A DNA stretch of 64,000 nt from Gemmatimonadota bacterium (GTDB lineage Bacteria > Gemmatimonadota > Gemmatimonadetes > JACCXV01 > JAHWKZ01), in contig JBOHRQ010000003.1 of assembly GCA_050732875.1 (NCBI GenBank), positions 2,821 to 66,820 on the forward strand, read 5' to 3'. Made by a program: the position numbers and the translations under genes. The notes beneath the pieces were generated by a model that was not told the DNA's origin, ran no database searches, and saw only the letters and a program-made list of their open reading frames with translations. Positions 18,986 through 63,010 of the stretch are shown here, one piece after another (the first letter of the stretch is position 1; every line of letters begins with the position of its first letter).

Positions 18986-19152
18986 CTAGTGTGCTGAGTC
19001 AGAAGTCCGGTGAAGCACCGAGAGCCCCGCTGCGCCCCGCGGGCGAGGCGCGACGAGGAGGAATGGCAGCGCCATTCCGCACGAGTCGCAACGAAGCCCC
19101 CGGGGATGCAGCGGGGCTCGAATGCCAACGGACTTCTGACTCAGCACACTAG
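18986..19152. mobile_element. MITE copy A. This 167-bp palindromic element is Correia/IS630-like, with ~19-bp terminal inverted repeats and TA flanks at a CTAG site.
   Basis: It is near-identical to 55780-55945. The TIRs are gtgtgctgagtcagaagtc ... gacttctgactcagcacac, and nested inner inverted repeats occur (gagccccgctgc/gcagcggggctc and ggaatggc/gccattcc). Confidence 0.8.
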
Positions 19153-36664: not shown

Positions 36665-38848
<2,184 letters not shown>

Positions 38849-38945
38849 TCGTTCCTCCTTCGGCGAGAAGGGTCAGGAACTCAAGAATCCACCGGGATAG
38901 TAGCGGGTTCCAACAACGCTGTAAAGCGATCGGTTCGGAGCGCCT

Positions 38946-40127
38946 TTATCCCGTTCGGGCCTGCTCTCCACCACTCTGCCAGAGCAGGCTCGGCAGGCTG
39001 TTCAGGAAGCCGCGGGGAGTGTACAGGACCTCCACCTCCCCTCGGCAGGAATACCAGCACGCGGTACAGGTGTTCGTTGCGTGCGCGTGGCGCAGCCCCG
39101 CCAGGACCTGCTCCATGGAATCGGTGCGCAGGTTGCCGACCGGTTCGCTGGCGTTGAATTCGACGCACTTGGAGACGACCATCTGGTTGTCGATGTTGAA
39201 CATGGCCTTCCCGGCGATGCAGCCGCCGATCCCGTCATTCGCGGCCTCGTCGAACTTTTCCAGGTACACCCGGTTCGAGTGGACGGTCCCGGGATAGAGC
39301 TCCTTGAGGCCGAGCAGCATCTCCGAAGCGCCCGCCAGGTGCCGCTGGTCCTCGTTGCCCGTCTTCATGACCGAGTAGGGCTGCACCTGCCAGTAGACGC
39401 CCAGATCGCGGGCCAGCCGGCACAGGGCGGGCATCTCCTGGAGGTTATCGTCGGTCAGCACCGAGATGATCTGCACCCGCTGGTACGAGGTGTCGGTCCG
39501 GGCATCCATGAGCTGTTCGATCGCCTTCACCGCGCGCTCGAACGCGAACCTCACGCCACGGTGACGGGAGTGCTTCTCCGGGTCGGCGTAATCGATCGAG
39601 ATCGAGCATCCCCACAGACCGGCCTGCCACAGCTCCCGGGCCCGTCTGGGCGTCATCCCCGAGCCCGACGAGGTGAGGTACGGGAAGTGGTCCTGGGCCA
39701 GGATGCCCACGATGCGGTGGATGTCGCGCCGCAACATCGGCTCCCCGCCGGCCAGGGAGACGATCAGCGAACCCATCTCGGAGAGCTTCCGCGAGCCGGT
39801 CACGAAGTCCTCGAGCGAGTTCTCCTCCTCGGGTTTGAAGTCGTTCTGCCAGTAGGTGCAGAACGAGCAGCCGTAGTTGCAGTTGTAGGTCACCTGCCAG
39901 GTCACCCAGACGGGACGGCCGGTGAGGTACGCTTTCAGGAGCCGCCCCTTCTTCGACCACGTTCCGCGTGGCGCCAGCGCCAGGTAGTCGTCCACCCGGA
40001 CCGGGGGACCGATCGGCAGCTCGATCACCTCGCCTCGCGAACGGCCGCGCTCCGAGCCCGGAACCAGGGACTCATCGGTGGAATTGTGTCCGCTTAGCAG
40101 GGATTCGAGCGGGATGGGCCTGGTCAT
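38946..40127 (-). CDS. Radical SAM enzyme with a SPASM/twitch-like C-terminal domain.
   Basis: The CX3CX2C motif is CNYGCSFC, followed by SLAGGEPM. C-terminal Cys-rich motifs are present (GGCIAGK...SKC...NTCTACWYSC). The true start may lie further in-frame. Confidence 0.8.
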   Translation of the reverse strand: MTRPIPLESLLSGHNSTDESLVPGSERGRSRGEVIELPIGPPVRVDDYLALAPRGTWSKKGRLLKAYLTGRPVWVTWQVTYNCNYGCSFCTYWQNDFKPEEENSLEDFVTGSRKLSEMGSLIVSLAGGEPMLRRDIHRIVGILAQDHFPYLTSSGSGMTPRRARELWQAGLWGCSISIDYADPEKHSRHRGVRFAFERAVKAIEQLMDARTDTSYQRVQIISVLTDDNLQEMPALCRLARDLGVYWQVQPYSVMKTGNEDQRHLAGASEMLLGLKELYPGTVHSNRVYLEKFDEAANDGIGGCIAGKAMFNIDNQMVVSKCVEFNASEPVGNLRTDSMEQVLAGLRHAHATNTCTACWYSCRGEVEVLYTPRGFLNSLPSLLWQSGGEQARTG

Positions 40128-40209
40128 ATCGCTCGCTGGGCTGGAGGTGAGGAAGATCCGTCTTCCGCACAGATGTCGGCGGTAGTCTAACCGGCCCCTT
40201 TTCCCGGTG

Positions 40210-41259
40210 TCAAACTCCGGTCGAGCCTGCCCGGACGGCCTCGAGGAACCACGCCACCGTCTCGTCCAGGCCCCTGTCCAGATCGTGGGTCGGGCGATAG
40301 TCGAGGAGCTGGGCCGCCCGCGAGATGTCGGCCTCGGAGTGGGGCACGTCCCCGGGACGGGAGGCAGCGTGCTCCGGCTTCCGGTCCTCGGCCCCCGGGA
40401 CGGCCCGCGCCACACGCCTCCGGATCTTCTCGAACAGCTCGCCCAGGCTCGTCCGCCTTCCGACCGCCACGTTGATGACGGATCCGACCGCGCCGGGCTC
40501 CCGGGTCAGCGCGGCCAGCAGGTTGGCCTGGACGGCATTGGCCACGTAGCAGAAATCCCGGCTGGACTGCCCATCGCCAAAGATGACGACGGGACGGTCC
40601 TGAAGAAAGGCGTCGATCCAGCGCGGCACCACGGCCGCGTAGGGTCCATCCGGTCGCTGCCGCGGACCGAAGACGTTGAAGTAGCGCAAACCTACGACCT
40701 CGAGCCCATAGGAGCGGGCGTGGGCGGCCGCGGCCAGCTCTCCCGCCACCTTGCTGGCCGCGTAGGGCGAGAGCGGGCGCCCGCGGCGATCCTCCACCTT
40801 GGGCAGCCCCGGATCGTCGCCGTAGACGGAGCTGCTCGACGCGTAGACCACGCGCGGACGGCCTCCGCGGCGCGCCGCCTCCAGTACGTTCACCGTCCCC
40901 AGCACGTTGACCGAATGGGTCTCGAGCGGATTCTCCATGGATCGGGGAACCGAGCCGAGCGCAGCCTGGTGGAGAATGACGTCCACGTCGCGAGCGGCCT
41001 CGCGGGTCGCGTCGAGGGAGCGGATGTCCGCGTGATGGAAGTGGAAGCCTCCCCATCGCTCCTCCCCGACCCGCGCCCGCACGTCCTCGAGGTTGGCCGG
41101 CGAGCCGGTGGACAGGTCGTCCAGCCCCACCACCTCCTGATTGAGCGCCAGGAGGGCCTCCAGAAGGTGCGAGCCGATGAAGCCCGCGACGCCGGTCACG
41201 AGCCAGCGGCGGGGGAGACGCCCCAGTTCGTCGAGCAGGTTCGCTGGAAGGGTTCGCAT
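40210..41259 (-). CDS. NAD-dependent nucleotide-sugar epimerase, resembling WbpP / UDP-GlcNAc 4-epimerase.
   Basis: It has the N-terminal motif WLVTGVAGFIGSHL, the catalytic YAASK, and overall extended-SDR epimerase similarity. Confidence 0.8.
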   Translation of the reverse strand: MRTLPANLLDELGRLPRRWLVTGVAGFIGSHLLEALLALNQEVVGLDDLSTGSPANLEDVRARVGEERWGGFHFHHADIRSLDATREAARDVDVILHQAALGSVPRSMENPLETHSVNVLGTVNVLEAARRGGRPRVVYASSSSVYGDDPGLPKVEDRRGRPLSPYAASKVAGELAAAAHARSYGLEVVGLRYFNVFGPRQRPDGPYAAVVPRWIDAFLQDRPVVIFGDGQSSRDFCYVANAVQANLLAALTREPGAVGSVINVAVGRRTSLGELFEKIRRRVARAVPGAEDRKPEHAASRPGDVPHSEADISRAAQLLDYRPTHDLDRGLDETVAWFLEAVRAGSTGV

Positions 41260-41308: not shown

Positions 41309-44083
41309 CTACGCCTTGAGCAGCTTGCCCGGGGCCACGTCGATCCCCTCCATCGCATTGCGGGTGTCGACGATGCAGCGCGCCCACTCGGCCAGCTCCC
41401 GATAGTCGACCGCCGCGTGCCGGGTCGAGATCACCACCACGTCGAAGGCGGAGATCGTCTGCCGGTCCCAGTCCACCGAGCGGGTTCCCGCCCAGTCGGA
41501 GTGCTCGCGGCTCGGCTGGATGACCGGCACGTGGGGATCGTGGTAGGCGACCTCCGCGCCGCGCTCCCGCAGGCGGTCCATGAGGTGGTAGCTGGGTGAC
41601 TCCCGGTCATCGGAGACGTCGGGCTTGTAGGCCAGGCCGAGAATCAGGACCCGGCTCCCGTTGACGGCCCGGCTCCGCGCGTTGAGCGCCTCGATCACGC
41701 GGGCCACGACGTGCTCCGGCATGCCGGTGTTGATCTCCCCGGCGAGCTCGATGAAGCGGGTGCTCTTGCCGTGCTCGCGGGCCTTCCAGGAGAGGTAGTA
41801 GGGATCGATGGGAATGCAGTTGTGGGAGACGAGTCCGTAGGAGGTCACATAGGTCTCCGTCCCGGGTACCTCGATCGAATACACCCAGCCGCCCTCGCGC
41901 TTGCGCACGCTGCCCGCCCCTACCGACGCGAACCCCGAGTGCCGGCGGGTCTTTCGGGTGGGCGTCGAGACGACCTTGCGATCCAGATAGGTATCCAGCT
42001 TCGCGCCCTTCGCTCCCGCGAGCAGGGGTCGGATCCGCCGCAGCTGCTCTCTGCCGTACAGCCGCATCTCGCGTGAATTCCGCTTGATGGTCGGCGTCAG
42101 CTCCAGACTGTGCATCAGCAGCAGAACCTGCTGAAAGAGCTTCGGACTGGACGTGAAGTAGCTGACTTCAGCGGTATCGAGCCGATGATCATAGGTTCGG
42201 CCACCTTTCCGGTAGACTCGTCGACCCTGGGTCGCGTAGACGCTCCCGTCGCCGTTCAGCAACGCCCCCAGAAGGTTGAGCCGCACCTCTTCGCTGGCAC
42301 CCAACATGATGGCCGGCACGCTCATCTCCTCCGACCGGACTCCGCAGCCGAGCACGTCCTTGAGAAAGATGCCGAACAGGTTGGAGGAAACCTTAATCTG
42401 AACCGCCCGCCAGCGCTTGACGCGATGCATTGACCAGCGCAGGCCCATCCGCGTCAGGATCCCCGTCAGGTCGTCGATCAGCTCACATTCATGGGATCCG
42501 AAGACCCACCGCGTACGCCAGGACCGGTCGCGAGACAGGCACCCCTCACTGAGGTAGTAGCCGATCAGGCGGGCGAACTCGGGATCCAGCGCGATGATGC
42601 AGGGGACGCGGGCCTGGGCCGCCCCGTTGCCGGTGGTCAGGAACAGGTCCTCGCGGCGGAAGGCCACCATCCCGCTGCTCTCGAGCTCCAGAAACGCGGA
42701 CAGGGGGAGGGTGTTCGAGCGCCGGAGGTCCTTACCCTCGAGTCCCGCCCGGCGCGCCACCGTCCGGATGGACGGCCACGAGTCGATCCAGGCCCCTGTC
42801 CGGGGCTTCACCCGGACCTTCGAGCCGGATGCGAGATCGAGGGCGTCGATGAGATCGATCGATCGCAGCGACCCGGACTCGGGCAGGCCCAGCGCCAGGA
42901 TGGGTCGGGCATCCTCGATCGAATCGGCCCGCCGGACATGGAGCTCGCCCCGCTGGCGCACGATCAAGGGGTGCCCGTCCGTCACCGTCAGCGTCCGGCC
43001 CTCCGACGTGCGCAGGGTGACGCGGTCGCCGCACCACCTTCGAAATACGTGCGTTGCTCTGCGGAAGCAGACCTCGCTTCTGTCGAGATCGAAGGAGAGA
43101 ACCTCCATCTCCCGGAGCGCCCGCACCTCTACCTCTCCGATCCTCCGCAGCCTGGCCCCGTCCCCGGCGAGCTCCTTCATGCGGACCGCGTCGATGCCGC
43201 CGTCACGGCGGACGAAGACGAACTCCTCGCCGTCCTGACAGTGCCCGCCCCAGCCAGGGCCGGGATCGAAGCGCATGAATCCGAACGGTTTGGTGTCCGC
43301 GGCCGCCAGGACTTCCCAGATGTCGACCCCCATCCGCTCGTAGATCAGCTTGAGCTCGTTGACGAGCGCGATGTTGACGGCGCGGAAGACGTTCTCGGTG
43401 AGCTTGGTGGCTTCGGCGACCCGGGCCGAGGAGACCCGGACCGTGGAAGGGACGATCCAACGGTAGAGGGCCTCCGCGAGATCGCCCGAGACGGGATCGA
43501 CACCGCCGACCACCTTGGGGACCGTCGTCGTGGTGTGCTGCGCATCCCCCGGGTTCTCGCGTTCGGGCGAAAAAGCCAGGAAGAAGTCGTGGCCGCAGCG
43601 GAGGCCGCCCGACTCGAGCCGCGGCCGGAGGAGCTCCTCCGCGGTACCCGGATACGTGGTCGACTCGAGCACTACGAGCTGTCCCGCTCGGAGCCGGCCG
43701 CGGACCTGATCGGTCGTCTGCTCGATGTATTGCATGTCCGGCTCGCGATGGGCCGTCAGCGGGGTGGGAACGCAGATCAGGATAGCGTCCGGCTCGGACA
43801 GGCGCTCGAAGTCCCCGGTCGCCACCAGCCGGCCGGCCTCGACGACCGCCCGCACGCGCCCTCCATCCAGATGCGCGATGTAGCTCTCGCCACGTGAAAG
43901 GGCCTCGACCTTGGCCGGATCGACATCGAAGCCCAGAACGTCGAAGCCCCGCTCGGCGAAGGCGAGCGAAAGCGGCAGGCCTACGTAGCCCATCCCGACG
44001 ACGCCCACCCGTGTGGCCCCCGAGTCGATCCTCTCCCGGAGAGCCTGCGCGGCGGCGGAGGTGGCGCGCTCTTCGACCGTCAC
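41309..44083 (-). CDS. UDP-N-acetyl-D-glucosamine/mannosamine 6-dehydrogenase (WbpA/WecC-like), interrupted by an intein.
   Basis: The N-extein carries VGVVGMGYVGLPL and GFMRFDPGPGWGGH, and the C-extein begins CIPIDPYYL. Together the exteins make 451 aa of contiguous nucleotide-sugar dehydrogenase. The GTG start overlaps the stop of the upstream epimerase as GTGA. Confidence 0.85.
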   Translation of the reverse strand: MTVEERATSAAAQALRERIDSGATRVGVVGMGYVGLPLSLAFAERGFDVLGFDVDPAKVEALSRGESYIAHLDGGRVRAVVEAGRLVATGDFERLSEPDAILICVPTPLTAHREPDMQYIEQTTDQVRGRLRAGQLVVLESTTYPGTAEELLRPRLESGGLRCGHDFFLAFSPERENPGDAQHTTTTVPKVVGGVDPVSGDLAEALYRWIVPSTVRVSSARVAEATKLTENVFRAVNIALVNELKLIYERMGVDIWEVLAAADTKPFGFMRFDPGPGWGGHCQDGEEFVFVRRDGGIDAVRMKELAGDGARLRRIGEVEVRALREMEVLSFDLDRSEVCFRRATHVFRRWCGDRVTLRTSEGRTLTVTDGHPLIVRQRGELHVRRADSIEDARPILALGLPESGSLRSIDLIDALDLASGSKVRVKPRTGAWIDSWPSIRTVARRAGLEGKDLRRSNTLPLSAFLELESSGMVAFRREDLFLTTGNGAAQARVPCIIALDPEFARLIGYYLSEGCLSRDRSWRTRWVFGSHECELIDDLTGILTRMGLRWSMHRVKRWRAVQIKVSSNLFGIFLKDVLGCGVRSEEMSVPAIMLGASEEVRLNLLGALLNGDGSVYATQGRRVYRKGGRTYDHRLDTAEVSYFTSSPKLFQQVLLLMHSLELTPTIKRNSREMRLYGREQLRRIRPLLAGAKGAKLDTYLDRKVVSTPTRKTRRHSGFASVGAGSVRKREGGWVYSIEVPGTETYVTSYGLVSHNCIPIDPYYLSWKAREHGKSTRFIELAGEINTGMPEHVVARVIEALNARSRAVNGSRVLILGLAYKPDVSDDRESPSYHLMDRLRERGAEVAYHDPHVPVIQPSREHSDWAGTRSVDWDRQTISAFDVVVISTRHAAVDYRELAEWARCIVDTRNAMEGIDVAPGKLLKA
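41819..43240 (-). mobile_element. Intein of 474 aa with a LAGLIDADG-type homing endonuclease domain, inserted at the catalytic Cys of the dehydrogenase.
   Basis: It begins with Cys (CQDGEEFVFV), has block B TDGH, and carries two LAGLIDADG motifs (LIGYYLSEGC and LLGALLNGDGSVY). It ends ...YGLVSHN, followed by the +1 Cys of the CIPID active site. Confidence 0.85.
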
Positions 44084-45063
44084 TCGGCCCCGGCCGACGC
44101 GACCTCGCGGTACCAGCGGACGAACGCCTCGAGACCCTCGTCGAGGCCGGTCCCGGGGTCGTACCCGAGCAGCCTTCGGGCACTCTCGATGTCGGCACAG
44201 GTCCGCTCGACGTCCCCCACCGGAAGCGGAAGACGCTCGATCCGCGCCTGGCGGCCGGTGGTCCGGGAGAGCGCCTCGATCAGATCGTTCAATCGCACCG
44301 GGACCGCTTCCCCCAGGTTGACGACCTCGAAGCCCTCCTCGCTCCGGACCCACCCCACGGACGCCACGACGCCGGCGACGATGTCCGAGAAGTACGTGTA
44401 GTCCCGTTCGCTCGTGCCGTCGCCGTAGACCTGGATCGGCAGCCCGTCCTCCATGAGACGCACGAAGCGGTGGATCGCCATGTCGGGACGCTGGCGAGGC
44501 CCGTAGACGGTGAAGAACCGCAGCGACATGACCGTGAAGCCATGCGCCGAGTGATACACGTGGCAGAGCTCCTCGCCGGCCTTCTTCGTCATCGCGTAGG
44601 GAGAGATGGGCCGATCGACGCGATCGGTTTCCCGGAGGGGCACGTCGGGCCTGTTGCCGTACACCGACGACGAGGAGCCGAACACCAGCCGGTGGCAGCC
44701 CGCTTCGCGCATCGCCTCCATGAGGATCACCGTGCCTTCGAGGTTGGTGCTCACGTATCCACAGGGGTCCTCCAGGGACGGTCGGACGCCGGCGCGCGCG
44801 CCGAGGTGGACGACGGCATCGTACGTCCCATCCGCGAAGAGTCCCGCGACGTCGGTCGGTTCCCGGAGATCCCCCTCCACCAGTCGGAACCGCTCGCTCT
44901 CTCGCAGGGCGGCGAGATTTCGTTCCTTGATTCTCCGGGGGTAGAATGGATCGAAGTTGTCGAAGGCCACCACTTCGTGGCCTTGCTCCACGAGCGACTC
45001 GCAGAGGTGGGACCCGATGAAGCCGGCCCCCCCGGTGACCAGGATCCGCCCTGTGCCGGTCAT
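44080..45063 (-). CDS. NAD-dependent epimerase/dehydratase, resembling UDP-glucuronate 4-epimerase.
   Basis: It has ILVTGGAGFIGSHL and the catalytic YAMTK. Its stop overlaps the start of the dehydrogenase. Confidence 0.8.
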   Translation of the reverse strand: MTGTGRILVTGGAGFIGSHLCESLVEQGHEVVAFDNFDPFYPRRIKERNLAALRESERFRLVEGDLREPTDVAGLFADGTYDAVVHLGARAGVRPSLEDPCGYVSTNLEGTVILMEAMREAGCHRLVFGSSSSVYGNRPDVPLRETDRVDRPISPYAMTKKAGEELCHVYHSAHGFTVMSLRFFTVYGPRQRPDMAIHRFVRLMEDGLPIQVYGDGTSERDYTYFSDIVAGVVASVGWVRSEEGFEVVNLGEAVPVRLNDLIEALSRTTGRQARIERLPLPVGDVERTCADIESARRLLGYDPGTGLDEGLEAFVRWYREVASAGAE

Positions 45064-45078
45064 CCCGCGCACGGCCAT

Positions 45079-47334
45079 TCAGGCGGATCCCCGGCGGGCC
45101 GCCTCGAGCTGCTCCAGCTCCTCGGCGGTGATCAGGACTTCGCGCGGCCTGGTCCCGTCCGGAGGTCCGACCACGTGCGCTCGCTCGAGCTGGTCCAGAA
45201 TCCGGGCGGCCCGCGAGTAGCCGACTTTGAGCCGGCGCTGGAGCAGGCTCGTCGACCCCTGATCGTGCTCCATGACCACGCGCGCGGCCGCGAGGAAGAG
45301 CTCGTCCCGTTCGTCCAGCGCCGCCATCTCCAGCTCCGACACCTCGGCGATGATGTCCACCGGCGGGGCCACCTCCGACGCATTGAGCACCTCGCCCGCC
45401 GCGCGCAGGTAGTCGACTACGCGCACGGTCTCGGCGGTCGAGACATACGCCCCCTGGATCCGCAGCGGCTCCGCCCGATCAGCGGGCATGAAGAGCATGT
45501 CGCCGTTGCCCAGCAGCTGCTCGGCGCCGTTCATGTCGAGGACGGTGCGGCTATCGATCTTCGAGGACACTTGAAACGAGACCCGCGACGGGAAGTTGGC
45601 CTTGATCACGCCGGTGATCACGTTGACCGAGGGCCGCTGCGTGGCAAGCACGAGGTGGATCCCGACGGCCCGGGCCATCTGGGCGAGCCGGGCGAGCGGC
45701 TCCTCGATCTCGTTCTGCACGGTCAGCATGAGGTCGGCCAGCTCGTCGATCAGGACGACGATGAAGGGCAGCGGGCGCGGATCCTCCTCGTCGAGCCAAT
45801 CCAGGTCGCTCCCGGCCCGGTGACGAGCGTTGAAGTCCTCCAGGCTCCGCACGCCGTTGGCCGCCAGAAGCCGGTAGCGCCGCTCCATCTCCGCGACCGT
45901 CCATTTCAGCGCCTTGGCCGCGTGCTTGTGCTCGACCACCACCGGGTGCAGGAGGTGCGGGATGCCATTGTAGGCGATGAGCTCGAGCATCTTCGGATCG
46001 ATCATGATGAGGCGCACGGCCTCGGGGCCGTACCGATAGATCAGGCTCGTCACGAGCGCGTTGATGCAGACGGACTTGCCGGAGCCCGTAGCGCCCGCGA
46101 TCAGCAGATGCGGCATCCTTGCCAGATCGGTCACGATCGGCGCGCCGGCGATCTCGCGCCCGAGCGCGAGCGGGAGCTTGCCGCGGAATCCATTCCACTC
46201 TGCGGCCTCCAGAATCTCGCGGATGGTGACCGTGTGCGGGCGGGTGTTGGGGATCTCGATGCCGACCGCTCCCTTGCCCGGGATCGGGGCCACGATGCGG
46301 ATGCGCTGGGCGCGCATGGCGAGCGCCAGGTCGTCGGCGAGGTTGGCGATCTGGTTCACCTTGACGCCAGGCGCGGGCTTGACCTCGAACTGCGTGAGGA
46401 CGGGACCCGAATGGATCGCCACGATCTCCCCTTCGACATGGAACGAACGCAGCTTCTCGATCAGCACGCCGCCGAGCTGTTCGAGCTCCTCGCGGGTCTG
46501 CCGGCTCCCGGCGGGAGGGGCCGGATCGAGCAGATCGATGGGGGGGATGAATCCGTCGGGCTCGAAAGAAGGCTTCTCCCTCCGGGGGCCGGGTGACGGA
46601 GGGCGCGGCGCGCCTCGCTTCGCGGTCCCCGGGTCAGCCACGGGCGGCTCGGCCTGGGCCGCCGGAGGCGGGCCGCCGTTGACCGTCGCCGCCTCCGGCT
46701 CGGGCGGCGATTCGTCCGCCGCCACTCGACCGGCGCGCCATTCCTGGACCGAGGTGCCCAGCGCCCCCATCCCGTCGCGGGCGCGGCGACCACCGGCCCG
46801 ACCGAGATCCATGCTCGTCCGGACTCCCTCCGCCAGCGAGATCCGGAAGACCACCGCTGCCAGCACGGCGACGAGGACGACGCAGGCGATCAGGGCGCCG
46901 GCCACCCCGATGGCCTCCACGGCCAGACCGGCAAGGGTTTCGCCCAGCCGACCCGCCCGCGCGCCCCAGAGCCCGCCGGCACCGCTCCAGATCGCCACCA
47001 CGCCCATCAGGACCAGCAGCGTCACGCCGGCGACCGCGGCCGCCCCGGAGATCAGGCCCGCCTTGCGCGTGACCTGGTCCAGGAAGACGAGCCCTCCCCA
47101 GACGAGCAGCAGGACCGCCGCGAGGAGGGCCCCGTACCCGAGCGCGGCATACAGATGGTACGCGCTGATGGCCCCCACCACCCCCACCAGATTCAGGGTC
47201 GAAGGGAGCCGCGAGAGGGTCGGGTCGAACGGCCAGAGCGCGAGCAGCAGGAAGATGCCCGTGGCCGCCATGAGCAGCCCGAGGACCTCGTGCCTCAGGC
47301 GGAGATGATCGCGCTTCCTCTTGCGTGGCGGCAT
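45079..47334 (-). CDS. ftsK: DNA translocase FtsK/SpoIIIE
   Basis: N-terminal TM helices and a Pro/Ala-rich linker precede the motor domain (Walker A: GATGSGKS) and the C-terminal gamma winged-helix domain. Confidence 0.9.
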   Translation of the reverse strand: MPPRKRKRDHLRLRHEVLGLLMAATGIFLLLALWPFDPTLSRLPSTLNLVGVVGAISAYHLYAALGYGALLAAVLLLVWGGLVFLDQVTRKAGLISGAAAVAGVTLLVLMGVVAIWSGAGGLWGARAGRLGETLAGLAVEAIGVAGALIACVVLVAVLAAVVFRISLAEGVRTSMDLGRAGGRRARDGMGALGTSVQEWRAGRVAADESPPEPEAATVNGGPPPAAQAEPPVADPGTAKRGAPRPPSPGPRREKPSFEPDGFIPPIDLLDPAPPAGSRQTREELEQLGGVLIEKLRSFHVEGEIVAIHSGPVLTQFEVKPAPGVKVNQIANLADDLALAMRAQRIRIVAPIPGKGAVGIEIPNTRPHTVTIREILEAAEWNGFRGKLPLALGREIAGAPIVTDLARMPHLLIAGATGSGKSVCINALVTSLIYRYGPEAVRLIMIDPKMLELIAYNGIPHLLHPVVVEHKHAAKALKWTVAEMERRYRLLAANGVRSLEDFNARHRAGSDLDWLDEEDPRPLPFIVVLIDELADLMLTVQNEIEEPLARLAQMARAVGIHLVLATQRPSVNVITGVIKANFPSRVSFQVSSKIDSRTVLDMNGAEQLLGNGDMLFMPADRAEPLRIQGAYVSTAETVRVVDYLRAAGEVLNASEVAPPVDIIAEVSELEMAALDERDELFLAAARVVMEHDQGSTSLLQRRLKVGYSRAARILDQLERAHVVGPPDGTRPREVLITAEELEQLEAARRGSA

Positions 47335-55779: not shown

Positions 55780-55945
55780 CTAGCGTGCTGAGTCAGAAGT
55801 CCGGTGAAGCACCGAGAGCCCCGCTGCGCCCTGCGGGCGAGGCGCGACGAGGAGGAATGGCAGCGCCATTCCGCACGAGTCGCAACGAAGCCCCCGGGGA
55901 TGCAGCGGGGCTCGAATGCCAACGACTTCTGACTCAGCACACTAG
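55780..55945. mobile_element. MITE copy B, 166 bp. It is the same element as 18986-19152 and is inserted at the CTAG stop of the metH-metF fusion gene.
   Basis: It differs from copy A by two substitutions and one 1-bp indel, and has the same TIRs and TA flanks. Confidence 0.8.
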
Positions 55946-61865: not shown

Positions 61866-62918
61866 TCAATCCAGGACCAGCGCGGTCCCACCCCGCGGCA
61901 CGACCTCGCCGATCCTCCGGGCGGCCTCGGCGCCCGCGGCGTGCAATCGCTCGACGATCTCCTCGCTTCGCCCCTCCGGCACCGGGAGCAGGAGCCCGCC
62001 GCTCGTCTGCGGGTCGAAGACGACGCGGACGAGAGCTTCGGGAATCGCGTCGCCGATCTCCATGCGCGGCCCGAAGAAATCGCGGTTCAACACCCCGCCG
62101 CCCGGCACATGGCCCTCCTCCGCCATCGCCAGCGCCCGCTCGAAGATCGGGAGCGCGCCGGCGTCGATCCGGAGCGTGACCCCGCTCGCATCCGCGAGCT
62201 GGACGCCGTGCCCGGCGAGGCCGAACCCGGTGACGTCGGTGGCCGCTCGGACGCCGACCTCCAGCGCGATCTCCGCCGCGGGCCCGTTCAGCGCCTTCAT
62301 CGCGTTGATGGCGGGCGCCAGGGCCGCCTCGTCCAGCGCCCGCCGCTTCAGCGCCGTCGTCAGCACACCGGTGCCGAGCGGCTTGGTCAGGACCAGCACG
62401 TCCCCGGGCTTCGCGCCCGCGTTCGTGAGGATGCGGTCGGGATGGGCGGTGCCGGTCACGGCGAGCCCGTACTTGAGCTCCTCGTCCTGGATCGAATGGC
62501 CGCCGACCAACGCGCAGCGTGCCTCGTGCGCCTTGTCCGCACCACCGGCCATGATCGAGCCCAGGATCTCGGGTTCGAGTCCCGACGGGGGCCAGCACAC
62601 GAGCGCCAGGGCCGTGCGCGGCGTCCCGCCCATCGCGTAGACGTCCGAGAGCGCGTTGGCGGCCGCGATCTGCCCGTAGTCGTAGGGATCGTCGACGATC
62701 GGGGTAAAGAAATCGACGGTCTGGATCAGCGCCAGGTCGGCACTCAGGCGGTACACGCCGGCGTCGTCGTAGGACTCGGTGCCCACGAGCACGTTCGGAT
62801 CGGGTTCGTGCCGCGGCATCCTCGCGAGCGCGCGGCGCAGGTCCTCCGGACCCAGCTTCGACGCTCAACCCGCGCAGCGCACCTTCTCGGTCAGCCGCGT
62901 GATCTCCTCGCTCGTCAT
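61866..62918 (-). CDS. selD: Selenide, water dikinase (selenophosphate synthetase). It is a selenoprotein with an in-frame UGA (Sec) at 62865-62867.
   Basis: Translating through the TGA gives [42 protein letters not shown]. The U aligns with the catalytic Cys17 (Sec in selenoprotein SelDs). The ORF-track ORF starts artificially at an internal Met after the TGA. Confidence 0.85.
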
Positions 62919-63010
62919 CTTCACGGGAGGAATATCGCCTTTCCGACCGCGTCCTGTCAGATCGAGGCCATGGCGCCGTGGCCGACGGGCCGCGGCGAGG
63001 CGCCGCGATG

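Follow-up and report, generated by a model that had tools for sequence, protein, structure and literature searches.

We have identified, on the minus strand of a 64-kb stretch of Gemmatimonadota DNA (hereafter, the window), a selD gene in which the codon for the catalytic residue is UGA. Judged from the sequence and from its relatives, the region 62918-61866 very probably encodes a full-length SelD of 350 residues, and residue 18, which corresponds to Cys17 of the E. coli enzyme, is very probably a UGA-encoded selenocysteine (Sec). The UGA at the catalytic position of selD is conserved, and selection at the protein level acts on the reading frame both before and behind it. Additionally, a hairpin beginning 10-12 nt downstream of the UGA is subject to selection at the RNA level. 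Automatic gene calls routinely truncate selD genes of the Sec type, and the gene described here is among those affected.

The selD gene and its product

Translation of 62918-61866 gave a single frame with one internal stop (Table 1). The original prediction had read selD from an ATG at 62918-62916, through an in-frame TGA, to an internal Met at 62819-62817, and its coordinates and sequences were all correct on the minus strand. Codons 1-17 are ATG ACG AGC GAG GAG ATC ACG CGG CTG ACC GAG AAG GTG CGC TGC GCG GGT. The TGA is followed by GCG TCG AAG CTG GGT CCG GAG GAC CTG CGC CGC GCG CTC GCG AGG and then by the ATG of the internal Met. The same prediction had noted that the list of open reading frames starts SelD at this Met, and we confirmed that the long ORF in the list begins at 62819 and has a length of 317 aa.

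When U was read as C, the 350-residue protein was recognized by both of the NCBIfam equivalog models of SelD, which have curated cutoffs. TIGR00476 scored 383.8 bits (cutoff 125), with residues 8-314 on profile positions 1-307, and NF002098 scored 343.5 bits (cutoff 299). Considering that the equivalog match begins at profile position 1, the SelD profile starts upstream of the UGA. The segment of codons 2-17 matches this start, which is in line with the earlier claim that the reading upstream of the TGA is the N-terminus of SelD. For the public gene call, the Pfam domains AIRS (PF00586) and AIRS_C (PF02769) are on record.

The best match among solved structures was E. coli SelD (PDB 3U0O, E = 3.8e-72, residues 3-348). 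Residues 3-30 aligned to this structure without gaps (CAG-U-ASK against GAG-C-GCK), so that U18 falls opposite Cys17 and Lys21 opposite Lys20. The TGA had been predicted to fall at the catalytic Cys17, and codon 18 indeed lies on that residue in the gapless alignment. In the SelD structures from Aquifex aeolicus, the motif SGCAAKVGPGDL is found at the position equivalent to the loop of U18.

Table 1. Positions of the selD gene and its parts in the window
Feature	Position	Strand	Basis or remark
Full-length selD CDS	61866..62918	-	Translation; 350 codons including putative Sec18, plus stop codon 61868-61866
Predicted selD product: selenide, water dikinase (selenophosphate synthetase)	61866..62918	-	
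Start codon ATG	62916..62918	-	Sequence; start codons of Gemmatimonadota relatives at this position or two codons upstream
N-terminal codons 2-17	62868..62915	-	Part of the catalytic glycine-rich segment upstream of the UGA
In-frame UGA, codon 18, putative Sec codon	62865..62867	-	Position of E. coli Cys17
SECIS-type hairpin	62838..62854	-	Overlaps the codons Leu-Gly-Pro-Glu-Asp-Leu
Hairpin core GGUCC/GGACC	62852-62840	-	
Hairpin apical loop GGA	62845..62847	-	Nucleotides 21-23, counting the U of UGA as 1
Internal Met, codon 34	62817..62819	-	False start of ORF finders and of the public gene call

Conservation of the UGA codon and its reading frame

Relatives were collected by scanning a genome set with a single representative for each species, which gave 80 loci. 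The closest of them are metagenome-assembled genomes of Gemmatimonadota, with identities of 64-92%, which places the window in this phylum. The original prediction had proposed an alignment to Sec-containing SelD sequences; among the relatives the homologous codon is TGA at 69 of the 80 loci and TGC or TGT at the other 11, which agrees with a Sec codon at this position. The loci of the TGA form span at least 12 phyla, including Gemmatimonadota, Calditrichota, Planctomycetota (Brocadiia), Chloroflexota, Actinomycetota, Armatimonadota, Verrucomicrobiota, Nitrospinota, Acidobacteriota and Eisenbacteria, together with others. The 11 Cys forms come from two Gemmatimonadota (L003 and L020) and nine other genomes, mostly Eisenbacteria. 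Sec/Cys pairs are thereby present at the catalytic codon of selD among the relatives, and it is by such an alternation of UGA with Cys at a catalytic position that selenoproteins are defined (PMC9312934).

TGA is one base away from TGC and TGT, and the sequence stems from a metagenome assembly, so a sequencing or assembly error in place of a Cys codon has to be weighed. We regard the probability of such an error as negligible. An independent public contig (CCZJMN010000109.1, GCA_973786185.1) is 100% identical over the 12,135 shared bases, including the TGA codon, and TGA occurs at the same codon in 68 other independent assemblies. An error would also leave the RNA-level constraints described below, which are specific to the TGA forms, without an explanation.

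The codons around the UGA were compared among the 22 Gemmatimonadota sequences with TGA. At codons -13 to -1 the amino acid is invariant at 12 of the 13 positions; the exception is codon -10, where Lys is found in 17 of the 22. Synonymous variation occurs in these sequences at codons -11, -9, -8, -7, -6, -5, -4 and -2, and the third positions of the N-terminal segment are variable (0.57-1.22 bits) at 9 of 14 codons. Since the amino acids are kept while the synonymous sites vary, the block upstream of the UGA bears the mark of a translated region. The codons downstream of the UGA are likewise conserved as protein, with synonymous variation, in the same frame. At the position of the selD start codon, the Gemmatimonadota relatives have ATG, GTG or TTG, or else they have an ATG two codons upstream.

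These comparisons bear on the possibility that the TGA is a genuine stop, in which case selD would be a pseudogene or would encode a 317-aa protein from Met 62819, and the upstream block would be an untranslated remnant. On the one hand, exactly this 317-aa product is what ORF finders and the public annotation give, and no genes of the Sec machinery lie in the accessible sequence (the window and the public contig). On the other hand, purifying selection on the protein, accompanied by synonymous variation, is evident in the 17 upstream codons across 22 relatives, and the TGA itself is conserved in the 69 loci. The internal Met is found in only 6 of the 22 Gemmatimonadota relatives and is absent from 16. 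The original prediction would have been in difficulty if orthologs from close relatives started at this Met and lacked the upstream block, but the block is kept in them. In addition, a truncated product would lack the glycine-rich loop that bears Cys/Sec17 and Lys20. Studies of E. coli SelD mutants established that the glycine-rich loop with Cys17 and Lys20 is required for activity. The part of the gene downstream of the TGA is intact; considering its G+C content of 92% at third positions (the value for selD) and the full-length match to the SelD HMM, it is not decaying. Accordingly, we consider a genuine stop at this codon to be highly improbable.

The hairpin downstream of the UGA

In the numbering in which the U of UGA is 1, the hairpin has the pairs U14-G30, G15-U29, G16-C28, G17-C27, U18-A26, C19-G25 and C20-G24. 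The stem thus consists of five perfect base pairs and two G-U pairs with no bulge, and the hairpin has a total length of 17 nt. There are 10 nt between the UGA and the U14-G30 pair and 12 nt between the UGA and the Watson-Crick core. The original prediction had described GGUCC-GGA-GGACC about 12 nt after the UGA, extendable with G-U pairs. This element is present with exactly 12 nt to its first G, and the G-U pairs extend it to 62854-62838.

RNA folding, which had been proposed as a check, gave a divided result. The hairpin by itself (62854-62838) has a free energy of -8.2 kcal/mol, whereas the surrounding region of 71 nt (62800-62870) folds no better than its shuffles (z = -0.03), and we rejected folding of this region as a test. 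Folding of the single sequence is uninformative at a G+C content of 68.5%, which is that of the window. Of all TGA triplets in the window, about 7% have a Watson-Crick hairpin with 5 bp or more at the same spacing. In this sequence alone, the hairpin therefore stands out from chance only weakly. A search with Rfam found nothing at gathering thresholds in the window, and a permissive Rfam scan of 62760-62930 gave only unrelated matches with E > 1.

The comparison of relatives was far more informative. We tested pairing and covariation in a gap-free alignment of 68 distinct TGA sequences, using as controls the same stems with the 3' partners slid by 1-3 columns. The pairs of the hairpin are formed in 78.4% of the cells, as against 21.8-47.5% in the controls. 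Double-sided changes were found in 35 cells, compared with 11-22 in the controls, and covariation scored 0.261, with no control above 0.109. None of 500 shuffles matched the observed covariation. Pair 16-28 is G-C in 32 cases and A-U in 13 and is never G-U (Fisher p = 1.3e-6). In distant phyla, other stems are formed at the same place, such as GGCC/GGCC, AGCGC/GCGCU, CCAUG/CAUGG and GUCC/GGAC. RNAalifold found no consensus for all 68 distinct TGA sequences from all phyla, because the register of the hairpin is slightly shifted in the distant phyla; for the subset in the same register it recovered only a core of 4 bp.

The loop is also conserved. Position 22 is G in 65 of the 68 distinct Sec-form sequences, although the encoded residue varies among Glu, Ala and Gly, and position 21 is G in 55 of them. 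The loop of the relatives is GGA, GGC or GGU.

As the hairpin lies within the coding sequence, we tested its synonymous sites. Among the 22 Gemmatimonadota sequences, the entropy of the third position is 0 at codons +5 to +8, while further downstream it is approximately 0.7-1.6 bits at the majority of the conserved codons. Codon usage in the hairpin was compared with that in the rest of the same genes. At the hairpin, Ser is encoded by AGU in 18 of 18 cases, as compared with 2.5% of Ser codons elsewhere. GGU encodes Gly in 28 of 31 cases, taking all Sec forms, against a background of 13.6%. For Leu, UUG, which pairs with the A of AGU, is used in 12 of 18 cases with a background of 8.7%.

The Cys forms differ from this pattern. 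Only one of nine has GGU for Gly, and the central pair U18-A26 is broken in 10 of the 11. They do keep a remnant of the stem, with 69% of the pairs. This remnant is forced by the peptide G-P-x-D-L, and a part of the pairing in the hairpin is likewise dictated by this conserved peptide. Remnant SECIS-like structures downstream of Cys codons have been described, and the remnant in the Cys-form selD genes agrees with that description (PMC1794560). We had also compared Sec with Cys forms by the minimum free energy of the region +10 to +42. Folding is stronger in the Cys forms, but solely on account of their higher G+C content; the comparison was dropped as a test and replaced by the pair-by-pair and codon-usage tests.

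Taken over the relatives, the evidence for the UGA and the hairpin lies far beyond chance and is decisive. The claim that selD is a selenoprotein gene is supported by the Sec/Cys pairs across the relatives and by the covariation and synonymous-site constraint in the hairpin.

Selenocysteine machinery and gene neighborhood

No selA, selB, selC (the gene of tRNA-Sec) or selU was found in the 64-kb window or in a further 8.8 kb of the public contig, which encodes SecDF, TatD, a PhoU-like protein, PiT and RidA. The NCBIfam annotation of 30 of the larger ORFs included no selA, selB or selU, and tblastn with E. coli SelA and SelB queries found neither of them in the window. The 64 kb contain no tRNA gene at all. 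Similarly, the flanks of +/-10 kb around 23 Gemmatimonadota loci contain none of selA, selB, selC and selU, and no tRNA-Sec was found in the Gemmatimonadota loci. A search of the literature yielded no report specifically on the use of Sec by Gemmatimonadota.

The neighborhood of selD in Gemmatimonadota has a conserved ridA-selD-hutU-hutI arrangement. In some relatives, an insertion of 2.8 kb between selD and hutU encodes a protein with a PKD domain, which is unrelated to selenium. In other phyla, 17 related loci have a tRNA-Sec gene as the next gene downstream of selD (12 of the Cys form and 5 with TGA), and four TGA-type loci have selA immediately upstream of selD. When all loci were searched by tblastn with the E. 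coli queries, SelA was found only beside selD, at four non-Gemmatimonadota loci. Matches to SelB in Eisenbacteria turned out to be LepA and were rejected.

The window was also scanned for other in-frame TGAs with flanking coding signal. The scan, which is insensitive in that it did not flag the TGA of selD itself, returned only antisense shadows and one ordinary junction of a stop and a start.

UGA is the main stop codon in the window, where it ends 22 of the 33 confident genes. Accordingly, UGA is not reassigned in this organism, and this counts against the idea that the codon in selD is decoded by means other than the Sec pathway, either by near-cognate read-through with Trp or Cys or through a lineage-wide reassignment, with a hairpin that merely slows termination. 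Such decoding would fit with the Sec machinery not being seen locally and with a hairpin that has neither the bulged U nor the loop U specific to E. coli. However, UGA alternates solely with Cys codons at the catalytic Cys/Sec position, and in other phyla TGA-type selD has tRNA-Sec and selA as physical neighbors. We therefore assign only a very small probability to decoding of this kind. Returning to selenocysteine as the residue encoded by the UGA, we infer from the conserved and constrained UGA and hairpin that selA, selB and selC are probably located elsewhere in the genome. A selD of the Sec type in genomes that truly have neither selA nor selB is very unlikely.

Truncation of selD in public annotation

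The gene call on the public contig CCZJMN010000109.1 is the same truncated product of 317 aa. Among the best 120 public homologues, approximately 90, with identities of 63-100%, have lengths of 295-332 aa and are truncated after the UGA. These calls begin at assorted downstream codons and lack the catalytic loop, and several of them start at the UUG in the 3' arm of the hairpin. Some of the truncated homologues are named SelD at NCBI. Within the same best 120, only the Cys forms are full length at identities of at least 63%.

The practical value of our study lies in the correction of annotation, as the close public homologues are nearly all truncated at the N-terminus. Pipelines that use such gene calls to score selenium metabolism or protein completeness will misread the selD of Gemmatimonadota.

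Proposed mechanism and implications

Following the established bacterial mechanism, we propose that the hairpin would act as a SECIS element to which the elongation factor SelB binds. SelB would then bring Sec-tRNA(Sec) to the UGA and compete there with release factor 2, and selA, selB and selC would be supplied from other parts of the genome. In this case, the synthesis of SelD would depend on its own product, selenophosphate, which would give a positive feedback loop. The requirement of SelD for its own product has been considered as a potential autoregulatory loop.

The hairpin sequence at the same time serves as codons for the conserved peptide L-G/S-P-x-D-L. The choice of codons (GGU or AGU, CCG, GAC, and UUG together with AGU) is fixed in a way that keeps the stem paired. 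In a gene whose third positions have such a high G+C content, the rare codons AGU, GGU and UUG are frozen by the pairing of the stem, and the selD locus is a clean example of overlapping constraints on protein and RNA.

The conserved Sec-type selD marks the Gemmatimonadota, which are widespread and mostly uncultured, as probable users of selenocysteine, and it predicts selA, selB, selC and perhaps further selenoproteins in their genomes. The current understanding of Sec decoding is unchanged by this finding. Among bacterial selenoproteins, SelD and FdhA have the widest distribution (PMC1794560, PMC5029168), and the Sec-type selD described here is therefore a known kind of gene.

We also considered a more far-reaching interpretation, which has two parts. 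The Gemmatimonadota of soils and sediments may maintain the Sec apparatus mainly or only for SelD, and the selD hairpin may represent a distinct, minimal class of bacterial SECIS elements. The first part is suggested by a selD that is unlinked to other selenium genes and by the 64 kb, in which there is no other selenoprotein gene. The second part is suggested by a GGN triloop, a stem of 5-7 bp with no bulge, and an occurrence in at least 12 phyla; the class would be common to these phyla because it is formed by the codons of the conserved G/S-P-x-D-L peptide. We consider this interpretation unlikely.

Comparison with known systems

The minimal SECIS element of E. coli is an upper stem-loop of 17 nt located 11 nt after the UGA, at nucleotides 15-31, and the fdhF element has a bulged U17 and the loop nucleotides G23 and U24 (PMC8659212). 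Like the fdhF SECIS, the selD hairpin lies within the coding sequence. Its start is 10-12 nt away from the UGA, and it occupies nucleotides 14-30. In this spacing and in its size of 17 nt it resembles the minimal SECIS of E. coli (PMC8659212), as had been predicted for the spacing. In both hairpins a G of the apical loop is conserved, at 21-22 in selD and at 23 in E. coli. On the other hand, the selD hairpin has neither the bulged U17 nor the loop U24. Its loop consists of the three nucleotides GGN, or of CGGNG when the closing pair is not formed, as compared with GGUC in E. coli, and the conserved G/S-P-x-D-L peptide determines the sequence of the hairpin. Rfam contains no model that matches it. 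Not all known selenoprotein genes conform to the consensus model of the bacterial SECIS (PMC9312934). In position and architecture the selD hairpin is like the E. coli SECIS, but it is not a copy of it.

With E. coli SelD (3U0O), the protein shares the glycine-rich loop, Lys20 and the AIRS/AIRS_C fold family. The E. coli enzyme has Cys (UGC) at position 17, where this selD has UGA, and E. coli SelD accordingly has no SECIS.

A close parallel is with the bacterial Sec-containing SelDs, such as the native enzyme of Aquifex aeolicus, whose solved structures (2YYE and 2ZOD) have Cys at the Sec position. The protein described here belongs to the same family (TIGR00476). It has the same Sec site in an N-terminal G-U/C-x-x-K loop and the same alternation of Sec and Cys among orthologues, and its putative SECIS is likewise inside the coding region, directly 3' of the UGA. 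This selD is not linked to selA or selC. Nothing in it is different in kind from the known Sec-type SelDs, and its host is an uncultured member of the Gemmatimonadota.

Gene calls and bases around the UGA of selD

Of the 120 public SelD proteins that are closest, about 90 (P0001-P0090) are N-terminally truncated calls of 295-332 aa, and these include entries that carry the NCBI name 'selenide, water dikinase SelD'. Calls of 324 aa are frequent among them. As checked in P0007, where the start is the UUG of codon +9, counted from the UGA, these begin at the UUG Leu codon that makes up the SECIS hairpin's 3' arm.

In 22 of 22 Gemmatimonadota sequences, the codon directly before the UGA (codon -1, 62868-62870) is GGU, a rare codon for Gly. 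All 68 of 68 sequences have G directly 3' of the UGA (62864), where a conserved Ala or Gly codon begins. The fixed GGU before the UGA and the fixed G after it may reflect a constraint of the recoding context that extends beyond the hairpin.

Genes neighboring selD in related loci

Among the loci encoding SelD relatives, 17 showed a tRNA-Sec gene (anticodon UCA) directly 3' of selD, at a distance of approximately 30-400 nt (see table). These loci belong mainly to Eisenbacteria, together with Actinomycetota, Armatimonadota, and a few others, and some of them encode SelD with Cys. In the one Eisenbacteria locus examined (L038), the GTPase gene located beyond tRNA-Sec was lepA and not selB; the tblastn matches in the remaining Eisenbacteria loci appear similar. 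Four loci carry selA immediately upstream of selD. In a subset of the Gemmatimonadota relatives, selD is separated from hutU by an insertion of approximately 2.8 kb, which encodes a PKD/Big_9-domain protein in the one locus examined (L016). This insertion is unrelated to selenium metabolism.

Features of the window and of related selD loci
Feature	Window position or loci	Strand	Remark
Nucleotide-sugar dehydrogenase ORF	41309-45478	-	TIGR03026, two separate stretches matched
Radical SAM gene 1	36665-38872	-	adjoins gene 2
Radical SAM gene 2	38946-40505	-	adjoins gene 1
Intergenic element, copy 1	18986-19152		~167 nt
Intergenic element, copy 2	55780-55945		~167 nt
tRNA-Sec downstream of selD	L033, L035, L036, L038, L041, L043, L044, L049, L050, L054, L055, L059, L061, L064, L068, L073, L078
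selA directly upstream of selD	L036, L041, L069, L080
~2.8-kb selD-hutU insertion	L008-L013, L016, L017, L023

Other features of the window

The two copies of the intergenic element share approximately 98% identity; one is situated 3' of relA/spoT, the second between the metH-like and PHP genes. Both are bounded by terminal inverted repeats of approximately 24 nt (CTAGYGTGCTGAGTCAGAAGTCCG ... CGGACTTCTGACTCAGCACACTAG). The window contains four occurrences of the repeat-end motif, where 0.02 would be expected; among the related loci the motif was found only in the source contig itself. The element has the look of either a structured repeat or a mobile element of the miniature inverted-repeat type.

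In the stop-to-stop ORF of the nucleotide-sugar dehydrogenase, residues ~747-1221 show similarity to proteins that contain inteins and to TIGR01443, the C-terminal splicing motif of inteins. An intein appears to split the dehydrogenase.

In radical SAM gene 1, no in-frame TGA was seen. Its product is most similar to the tetraether lipid synthase Tes (NF045702), with a score of 323 bits that does not reach the cutoff of 450. A further similarity, to TrsS, a radical SAM (seleno)protein, scores 224 bits and is again below the cutoff. Gene 1 is a possible homologue of a membrane-spanning-lipid synthase in a Gemmatimonadota genome.
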